Shown piece by piece: positions 44,737 to 45,800 of a DNA stretch of 46,320 nucleotides. Within the stretch, counting starts at the first letter, position 1, and the number at the start of each line of letters is the position of its first letter. The notes under the pieces are model-generated. The model saw only the letters and a list, made by a program, of their open reading frames with translations. It was not told the origin of the DNA and searched no databases. Location of the stretch: positions 1 through 46,320 of IMG/VR virus record IMGVR_UViG_2645727562_000022; one strand, 5' to 3'. A program made the translations under genes and the position numbers. Origin of the DNA: a virus (taxonomy: Duplodnaviria; Heunggongvirae; Uroviricota; Caudoviricetes).

Positions 44737-44766
44737 AGGCCACTAAATGTGGCCTGTTGTTATTTT
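44737..44766 (+). terminator. Rho-independent terminator after the tailspike
   Basis: AGGCCAC-TAAAT-GTGGCCT followed by GTTGTTATTTT; sits between the convergent tailspike and oac genes. Confidence 0.65.
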
Positions 44767-45800
44767 ACCAATCGCAATAAAGGATTGATCGCAAGTCGAT
44801 TTATAGCTAACGAAAATGTGAAGGAAACAATGAAAACAGTGGTGGTGAGAAGTAACGTATACGAAAATGAGCTGCCAACATACCACGTAAGGTTGAAATA
44901 TTTTGCTATAAGCATTGCAATGATTAGGTGTATTAAATAAATCCCATAGCTAGCTTCAGCAGCAACGCTTATAAATTTCGATGCGATTTCTCCAGGCTTT
45001 ATTTCTAAGCAATAAAATAAATATGTTAATGATGTGGCAAAAACGTACATATTTAATCCTGCATCAAAAGGCGCATAGAAGAAGGTCCCCCCACCATTGA
45101 ATTGCTGATAAGTAGCTGTAACCGTCATCAAATATCCCGCCAATACAATCATCGCAGCACATTTTACTCTTATCTTCTGAAGCTTTGGGATCAACCCTCC
45201 GATCATGAAGTAAGCAAGCCATGTGCTAAGGTCTGGGATTTCCAATCCTTGAACATACCCTTTCAGATAGACATTGTACCCCTTAATTAAAAGTATAAAG
45301 CACAAGGCCGTAAGCGCATGCCTGGATGATAATCCACTAAAAAGATAGCTAAGCAGTGGGGTGATGATATAAATACCAGTCATCGCATAAACAAACCAAA
45401 AATGAACTGAAATCCCAGTAGATATCATCAGTCCATCAAAATACGACTTAAAAGATAGAGGTAAATCAGAACCAGATATGAACTTGCTTGCTATAAAGAA
45501 ATGAATAAATGAGAATACAAAAAAAGGAAGAAGAAGGGATACCAATCTTTTCCTGTAGAAAGTCTTTATATTATCTATGTCTCGGTTGAGCAAAAACATT
45601 CCGCTGATTATAAAAAACACAGGAAGCCCAACCCGAACAAGGCTTTGCACCAATAGCGCTGACATCATCTCATTATTTGAGATGCCCATCTTTATGTACA
45701 AATCATACATAGGCGCTATGTGAATACCGACTACAAGAAAACAGCAAATAATTCTCAAAGACTCAATTGAAGCGTTCCTTTCTCTCATTACAGGCACCAT
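44760..45800 (-). CDS. oac: O-antigen acetyltransferase (acyltransferase-3 family), lysogenic conversion gene
   Basis: 346-aa polytopic membrane protein with acyltransferase-3 features; AT-rich relative to flanks by eye; adjacent and convergent to the tailspike as in Sf6-type conversion loci. Confidence 0.8.
   Translation of the reverse strand: MVPVMRERNASIESLRIICCFLVVGIHIAPMYDLYIKMGISNNEMMSALLVQSLVRVGLPVFFIISGMFLLNRDIDNIKTFYRKRLVSLLLPFFVFSFIHFFIASKFISGSDLPLSFKSYFDGLMISTGISVHFWFVYAMTGIYIITPLLSYLFSGLSSRHALTALCFILLIKGYNVYLKGYVQGLEIPDLSTWLAYFMIGGLIPKLQKIRVKCAAMIVLAGYLMTVTATYQQFNGGGTFFYAPFDAGLNMYVFATSLTYLFYCLEIKPGEIASKFISVAAEASYGIYLIHLIIAMLIAKYFNLTWYVGSSFSYTLLLTTTVFIVSFTFSLAINRLAINPLLRLVK

Follow-up and report, generated by a model that had tools for sequence, protein, structure and literature searches.

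A putative lysogenic-conversion O-acetyltransferase gene convergent with a beta-helix tailspike in a contractile-tailed Escherichia coli prophage

Does the acyltransferase gene at the end of a temperate phage genome alter the very receptor that the neighbouring tailspike recognizes? The question arises in a 46,320-nt stretch of viral DNA (positions 1–46,320 of IMG/VR record IMGVR_UViG_2645727562_000022, hereinafter the window), where a gene for a polytopic acyltransferase-3 (AT3) protein faces a tailspike gene on the opposite strand. An earlier note, made from the sequence alone, read this pairing as the classic serotype-conversion and superinfection-exclusion arrangement and regarded its attachment to a contractile tail, rather than to a podovirus, as a departure from the usual pattern.

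The window holds the whole genome of a lambdoid temperate myovirus, present in E. coli as a prophage. Besides the integrase (27–1307), its early and regulatory genes encode RecT, a Gam-like protein, a CI-like S24 repressor, an O-like initiator, DnaB, NinB and a Q-like antiterminator, and its head genes encode terminase, portal, protease and capsid. The contractile-tail, baseplate-bearing module described in the earlier note is indeed present: the tail genes specify a DUF3383/E217 gp31-type sheath (31717–33195), an E217 gp32-type tube, a tape measure, a Pam3 gp18-type plug and an Apex spike, and the baseplate and fibre genes a sheath initiator, Baseplate_J, a DUF2612 wedge, a collar fibre and the tailspike. 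The AT3 gene and then humD are the last two genes of the prophage, with AT3 lying between the receptor-binding genes and the attP/int end. Elsewhere in the prophage, an IS-type transposase gene (PHROG 157, E = 3e-116) with a preceding small ORF occupies 7372–8525 in the early-left region; it is likely an IS insertion and could affect inducibility. An HNH endonuclease gene lies at 8610–9095. The head maturation protease (26231–28054, 607 aa) has an N-terminal extension of ~200 aa, residues 48–153 of which weakly match an Alt-like RNA polymerase ADP-ribosyltransferase family (PHROG 802, E = 1.5e-6).

The host was identified through a 94.8-kb contig, L061, retrieved by an exact match to the tailspike protein; it is 100% identical to the window over 44700–46320 and continues beyond humD into genes for an MFS transporter and a mannitol-dehydrogenase-family protein, ydfZ, genes for GntR and SDR proteins, dcp, ydeJ and ydeI (L061 13985–22256). 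The dcp–ydeI part is 100% identical to E. coli chromosomes, and the host is therefore E. coli. We take the flank from the MFS transporter gene to ydeI to be the neighbourhood of the Qin prophage in K-12. A megablast search with 42400–46320 gave no match among 50,697 phage records; against 5,426 complete RefSeq E. coli genomes it matched only the tailspike N-terminus and humD, and never the AT3 gene.

The AT3 gene (44760–45800, minus strand), a putative lysogenic-conversion O-acetyltransferase gene, is an intact ORF of 346 codons. Gene calls in contig L061, identical here, and in the related prophage L003 use a second ATG at 45788, which would yield a 342-aa protein; on the strength of the homologues and the L061 gene call, we favour this alternative. 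Membership of the acyltransferase-3 family, as the earlier note proposed, is borne out by a full-length match to Pfam Acyl_transf_3 (PF01757; residues 9–330, profile positions 1–325 of 326, E = 9e-36, 123.9 bits against a curated cutoff of 31), and the protein also matches PHROG 3333, 'O-acetyltransferase' (E = 6e-25). This single Pfam domain in a 346-aa protein defines an AT3-only architecture with no fused SGNH domain. The predicted structure, confident throughout, is a 10-helix transmembrane acyltransferase fold, and its only strong matches among solved structures are HGSNAT and GWT1, both transmembrane acetyl/acyl-transferases. The protein matched no NCBIfam equivalog and no PADLOC model.

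The R-X10-H motif, absolutely conserved in AT3 proteins (PMC9833829), is present in TMH1 as R16...H27; both residues are at least 90% conserved in a 30-sequence subfamily alignment and invariant in comparison with the proteins of Sf6, phiV10 and Pantoea phage PA-1. Across the 30 subfamily members, R16, H27, R56, an FFxxSG block, R85, H133, W135, D246, Y285 and H291 are invariant or nearly so, and the R-X10-H, FFxxSG, W135, D246 and Y288 columns are common to the window protein, Sf6 Oac and phiV10 Oac. Overall identity to these characterised enzymes is at the level of family similarity (17% to Sf6 Oac, 21–24% to phiV10 Oac), the comparison with characterised Oac proteins covering those of Sf6 and phiV10.

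The canonical RXXR motif at the cytoplasmic face of TMH3 was not found in the AT3 protein, which reads Y82-R83-K84-R85-L-V-S88 at this point. RXXR is highly conserved but not absolute in AT3 proteins (PMC3467182, PMC9833829), and R76 of Sf6 Oac has been described as highly conserved and critical (PMC3467182). Whereas Sf6 Oac has the cluster R73/R75/R76, the window protein has R83-K84-R85: Sf6 R73 aligns with R85, and the R76 position falls on Ser88, or on Leu89 when the conserved proline anchors the alignment. Within the subfamily this position is Ser, Gly or Ala, with the basic residues R83 and K84 standing upstream. TMH3 thus keeps a basic cluster, in an altered arrangement. Loss of the second arginine, a residue critical in Oac (PMC3467182), could be taken to mean that the gene is decaying or inactive. 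We consider this highly improbable: the variant motif FYxKRxxS is common to 30 of 30 subfamily sequences with R85 invariant, the frame is intact, the Pfam match and the confident structure model extend over the whole protein, and dN/dS is of the order of 0.1. The latter value (0.08–0.12 against three homologues) indicates that the AT3 gene is not only intact but evolving under purifying selection.

The gene had been called strongly AT-rich by eye, with GC content and codon usage named as the check, and both measures agree with that impression. At 37.3% GC it stands against a mean of 49.4% (s.d. 2.2) for equal-sized stretches elsewhere in the window (z = –5.4) and falls below every one of them (minimum 43.5%), making it the most AT-rich kilobase. 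Recoding the protein with backbone codon usage gives an expected GC content of 45.1%, so about one third of the deficit is due to the hydrophobic amino-acid composition of a membrane protein and the remainder to codon choice. GC3 over 44760–45800 is 0.386, compared with 0.543 ± 0.047 in the structural genes, and a CAI-like index with the structural genes as reference is the lowest among the genes tested (0.64 versus 0.72–0.85). GC3 of the tailspike gene is 0.37–0.42 across its whole length, including the conserved N-terminal anchor, as against a minimum of 0.46 in the other structural genes, which hints at a compositional history common to the tailspike and AT3 genes.

Atypical composition of this degree would also suit a passenger, that is, a gene acquired horizontally at a permissive prophage-end site, without any link to the tailspike and with an unrelated benefit to the host or none; the region adjacent to attP and int is a general hot spot for such cargo. 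The AT3 gene is lower in GC than the surrounding locus in 24 of the 24 homologue loci examined, and low GC is therefore a trait of the gene family and no peculiarity of this copy. Homologues also occur far outside Enterobacterales, in the purple sulfur bacteria Allochromatium (L009 and L010, 36–41% identity), and there too the gene lies far below the GC content of its locus (0.447 versus 0.628 in L009).

Signals flanking the AT3 gene point to an autonomous transcription unit. A sigma-70 promoter is predicted at 45819–45846 on the minus strand (TTGATC, 16-nt spacer, TATGAT with a TG extended –10), from a consensus scan that returned 5 sites against 5.2 expected in shuffled sequence and so performed no better than chance. 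Between the window, L003, L032 and L033 the promoter block hardly varies, whereas its flanks diverge and the AT3 proteins of these four loci are only 71–90% identical. At the other end of the gene, a GC-rich hairpin (AGGCCAC-TAAAT-GTGGCCT, 44737–44755, unstranded), found by a terminator scan with a T-run on the plus strand and read directly in the sequence, nearly fills the 28-nt gap between the convergent stops of tailspike (44731) and AT3 (44760). The hairpin, whose first base is the coordinate at which the earlier note began its locus (44737), is a predicted terminator, likely bidirectional and shared by the two genes. Given the conserved promoter block, the hairpin and the atypical composition, the AT3 gene has what reads as a textbook moron structure.

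The conversion slot is bounded by humD (45931–46320, plus strand), the divergent neighbour of AT3 and last gene of the prophage, which encodes a UmuD-like S24 peptidase of the P1 HumD type (NCBIfam HumD equivalog, E = 3e-69). A perfect LexA box, CTGTACATCCATACAG, lies at 45896–45911 and is conserved in the window, L003, L032 and L033. SOS control of AT3 was considered and rejected: the box coincides in part with the humD promoter, some 50 bp upstream of the AT3 –35 element, and is therefore probably specific to humD rather than governing AT3. The spacer of the AT3 promoter is taken up by a perfect palindrome (8+1+8, AACAGCAT-G-ATGCTGTT, 45824–45840), which was likewise set aside as a candidate operator: the four loci agree in the right arm (ATGCTGTT), but L032 and L033 depart from the left arm. 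Dam/OxyR-type phase variation, as in gtr operons, was considered from the GATC sites: only three occur between AT3 and humD, and two of these fall within the –35 hexamers of the two promoters. In L032, an insertion of ~170 bp (683–850) containing a 55-aa ORF of no known family separates the conserved promoter from the AT3 start.

The convergent partner of AT3 is a tailspike of 751 aa (42476–44731, plus strand) with, as the earlier note had it, a pectate-lyase-like beta-helix (PF12708, E = 2e-15); it also matches multiple PHROG tail-spike families. An Ala-rich N-terminal anchor (residues ~1–250) is followed by a right-handed beta-helix (~251–751), which is predicted to be the receptor-binding or depolymerase part. 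Upstream lies a tail-collar fibre gene (41295–42467, plus strand; PF07484, E = 1e-22). The tailspike is locally similar to that of Sf6, an endorhamnosidase (37.5% over residues 252–380), and also matches PHROG 8280, 'tail spike protein with colonic acid degradation activity' (E = 3.6e-10). The latter match speaks for another alternative, in which an enzyme of the same class acts on an acceptor other than O-antigen (capsular K-antigen, colanic acid, ECA or another envelope glycan), whether or not this is the receptor of the tailspike. Enzymes that degrade capsule or colanic acid are known among the beta-helix spikes with this Pfam domain, and the substrate of the AT3 protein is not pinned down by any equivalog model. 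Nor does the AT3 family alone fix the acceptor, because AT3 proteins acylate many acceptors, including capsules, ECA, OPGs, Nod factors and antibiotics (PMC9558356). The similarity to the Sf6 endorhamnosidase argues against a non-O-antigen acceptor, as do the contents of the equivalent slot in sister prophages.

Two prophages of the same type, L003 and L032, carry AT3 in the same slot with 90% and 78% identity, respectively, and the C-terminal parts of their tailspikes are 98% and 87% identical to that of the window. In comparison, this part is only 45–46% identical in L001 and L002, which carry gtrABC. In the prophages of E. coli A30 and 1506, the DUF2612 wedge, the collar fibre and the tailspike N-terminus are 88–97% identical to those of the window (in strain 1506, baseplate J additionally at 93%), and the slot between tailspike and S24/humD is occupied by gtrA, gtrB and gtrC (DUF6311). 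The gtrABC genes are the classical O-antigen-modifying (glucosylation) cassette. Those of A30 and 1506 resemble the AT3 gene in prophage lineage, slot and antisense orientation to the tail genes, but form a three-gene glucosylation system whose paired tailspike receptor domain is only 45% identical to that of the window.

Divergence between the window and L003 delimits the unit of inheritance. The dS values of collar fibre (0.36), tailspike (0.39) and AT3 (0.42) are alike, indicating that AT3 travels with the tailspike. By contrast, humD shares only 74% protein identity with its L003 counterpart and its dS is saturated, although the adjacent tail genes are 97–98% identical; a recombination boundary is therefore placed in the AT3–humD spacer. 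Collar fibre, tailspike and AT3 appear, from these sequence comparisons, to be inherited as one block.

More distant relatives keep to a similar pattern. Pantoea phage PA-1 (OQ847583), whose tail module is the closest among cultured relatives (76% nucleotide identity) and for which our literature search found no paper, has a different AT3 gene in the slot between tailspike and integrase. Like the window gene, PA-1 ORF081 ('acyltransferase'; Pfam AT3, E = 1e-25) directly follows the tailspike and precedes the integrase, but it lies on the same strand as the tailspike and encodes a 399-aa protein only 16% identical to that of the window; it is an independent AT3 lineage occupying the same slot. 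A 47% homologue stands at the end of a prophage with a Mu-like tail in Enterobacter sp. 638, and a 32% homologue in a P2-like remnant in Citrobacter. All seven IMG/VR loci tested have, convergent and downstream, one or more genes for a tail fibre, a fibre-assembly protein or a tailspike. In L033 (1270–6021) and L034, a 71% homologue is accompanied by a humD-like fragment and a tailspike fragment of 51 aa, next to genes for a GDSL lipase and, separately, an AT3-SGNH protein; this decayed locus appears to be what is left of a prophage that kept its acetyltransferase gene. A scan of genome contigs yielded only relatives no more than 44% identical.

These relatives also bear on the passenger reading. 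Not all homologues belong to a recognisable prophage, and one of 41% identity in Buttiauxella, between yedD and fliE and without phage neighbours, speaks for it. Against it stand the purifying selection on AT3, the conserved promoter block, the recurrence of such genes beside receptor-binding genes in unrelated tail types, and the co-inheritance of AT3 with the tailspike receptor domain, both of which are replaced together by another spike and gtrABC. A gene unconnected with the tailspike is accordingly an improbable account of the locus.

Several known systems come close to this locus, that of Shigella phage Sf6 among them. Like the window gene, Sf6 Oac (OacA) is an AT3-only protein (the two spanning ~333–346 aa) encoded convergently and directly after the tailspike, near int/attP; Sf6 oac has its own promoter, and an annotated terminator between tailspike and oac takes the same position as the hairpin of the window. 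R-X10-H and several other critical columns are common to both proteins. Unlike the window, Sf6 is a P22-like podovirus, and the AT3 identity is only 17%. Oac of phiV10, an E. coli O157 phage, is the best match in the phage database (24% identity over 86%, E = 3e-7), a similarity at family level only; its gene is also convergent with a tail fibre or spike gene and is annotated as acetylating host O-antigen and conferring superinfection immunity, but phiV10 is an epsilon15-like podovirus. Sf6 Oac acetylates O-antigen and thereby blocks the phage's own endorhamnosidase tailspike, and in both Sf6 and phiV10 the acetylase protects against adsorption of the phage's own kind (PMC9558356). The characterised enterobacterial phage-borne AT3-only enzymes (Oac, OacD and phiV10 Oac) all act on O-antigen (PMC9558356), which, together with gtrABC in the equivalent slot, makes a non-O-antigen acceptor unlikely, if clearly less so than a passenger gene.

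The phages SfI, SfII, SfIV and SfV resemble the window in being temperate and lambdoid, with a contractile tail and O-antigen-modification genes. Their tails are Mu-like modules with fibres, whereas the window has an E217/Pam3-type sheath and baseplate with a beta-helix tailspike. All four belong to the Myoviridae, convert serotype and have their modification genes beside int-attP (PMC3851460, PMC3772137). SfII carries the acyltransferase gene SfII_25 (PMC3772137), and oacD, responsible for 6-O-acetylation of GlcNAc, has been reported on the SfII genome (PMC9558356). PA-1, of the same tail lineage as the window, already has an AT3 gene after its tailspike. The view that a contractile tail sets this locus apart must accordingly be given up. 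We regard the locus as a divergent case of a known kind, distinguished by an E217/Pam3-like tail with a true beta-helix spike, by remote sequence and by the variant TMH3 motif.

The analysis establishes the family and fold of the protein, the intactness of the gene and the selection acting on it, its moron architecture, its linkage to the receptor domain of the tailspike and the equivalence of its slot with that of gtrABC. On this basis we think it probable, with some room for doubt, that the gene encodes a lysogenic-conversion O-acetyltransferase that modifies the receptor of the phage's own tailspike, probably O-antigen, with a change of serotype and exclusion as the outcome. In this mechanism, the lysogen would express AT3 from a promoter belonging to the gene itself, antisense to the late operon, with transcription ending at the hairpin shared with the tailspike. 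The product, presumably a 10-helix inner-membrane AT3-only acyltransferase, would admit cytoplasmic acetyl-CoA to a transmembrane pore lined by R16, H27 and R83-K84-R85, by analogy with Oac, OafB and HGSNAT, and would acetylate a surface polysaccharide from the periplasmic side. The most likely acceptor is the repeat unit of O-antigen, to which the beta-helix tailspike of the same phage would bind and which it would cleave. Once acetylated, the receptor would no longer be a substrate for that tailspike, and the lysogen would therefore change serotype and resist superinfection by the same and related phages.

The serotype-conversion and exclusion arrangement proposed in the earlier note thus stands as an arrangement, backed by the gtrABC and PA-1 slots, the co-inheritance with the tailspike and the Sf6 and phiV10 layouts. 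Its functional half carries less weight: we infer the acceptor glycan, the acetyl donor and the exclusion phenotype from these comparisons. More tentatively, and at odds that we would put well below even, this AT3 clade may confer an undescribed O-acetyl modification, and with it a new E. coli O-antigen variant, or be one half of an exchangeable cassette of receptor domain and modifier. Such a cassette could move as a unit among temperate myoviruses of the E217/Pam3 type, alternating with a different spike and gtrABC.

No new mechanism is implied, as serotype conversion by AT3 enzymes, including those of contractile-tailed phages, is already established. If confirmed, the gene would add one more phage-borne O-antigen modifier in E. 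coli, of relevance to serotyping, vaccine antigens and the host range of therapeutic phages. The lineage also offers a natural comparison, in which one tail module is combined with either AT3 or gtrABC and each modifier is paired with its own tailspike receptor domain, and which may help to show how the recognition of a receptor and its masking evolve together.
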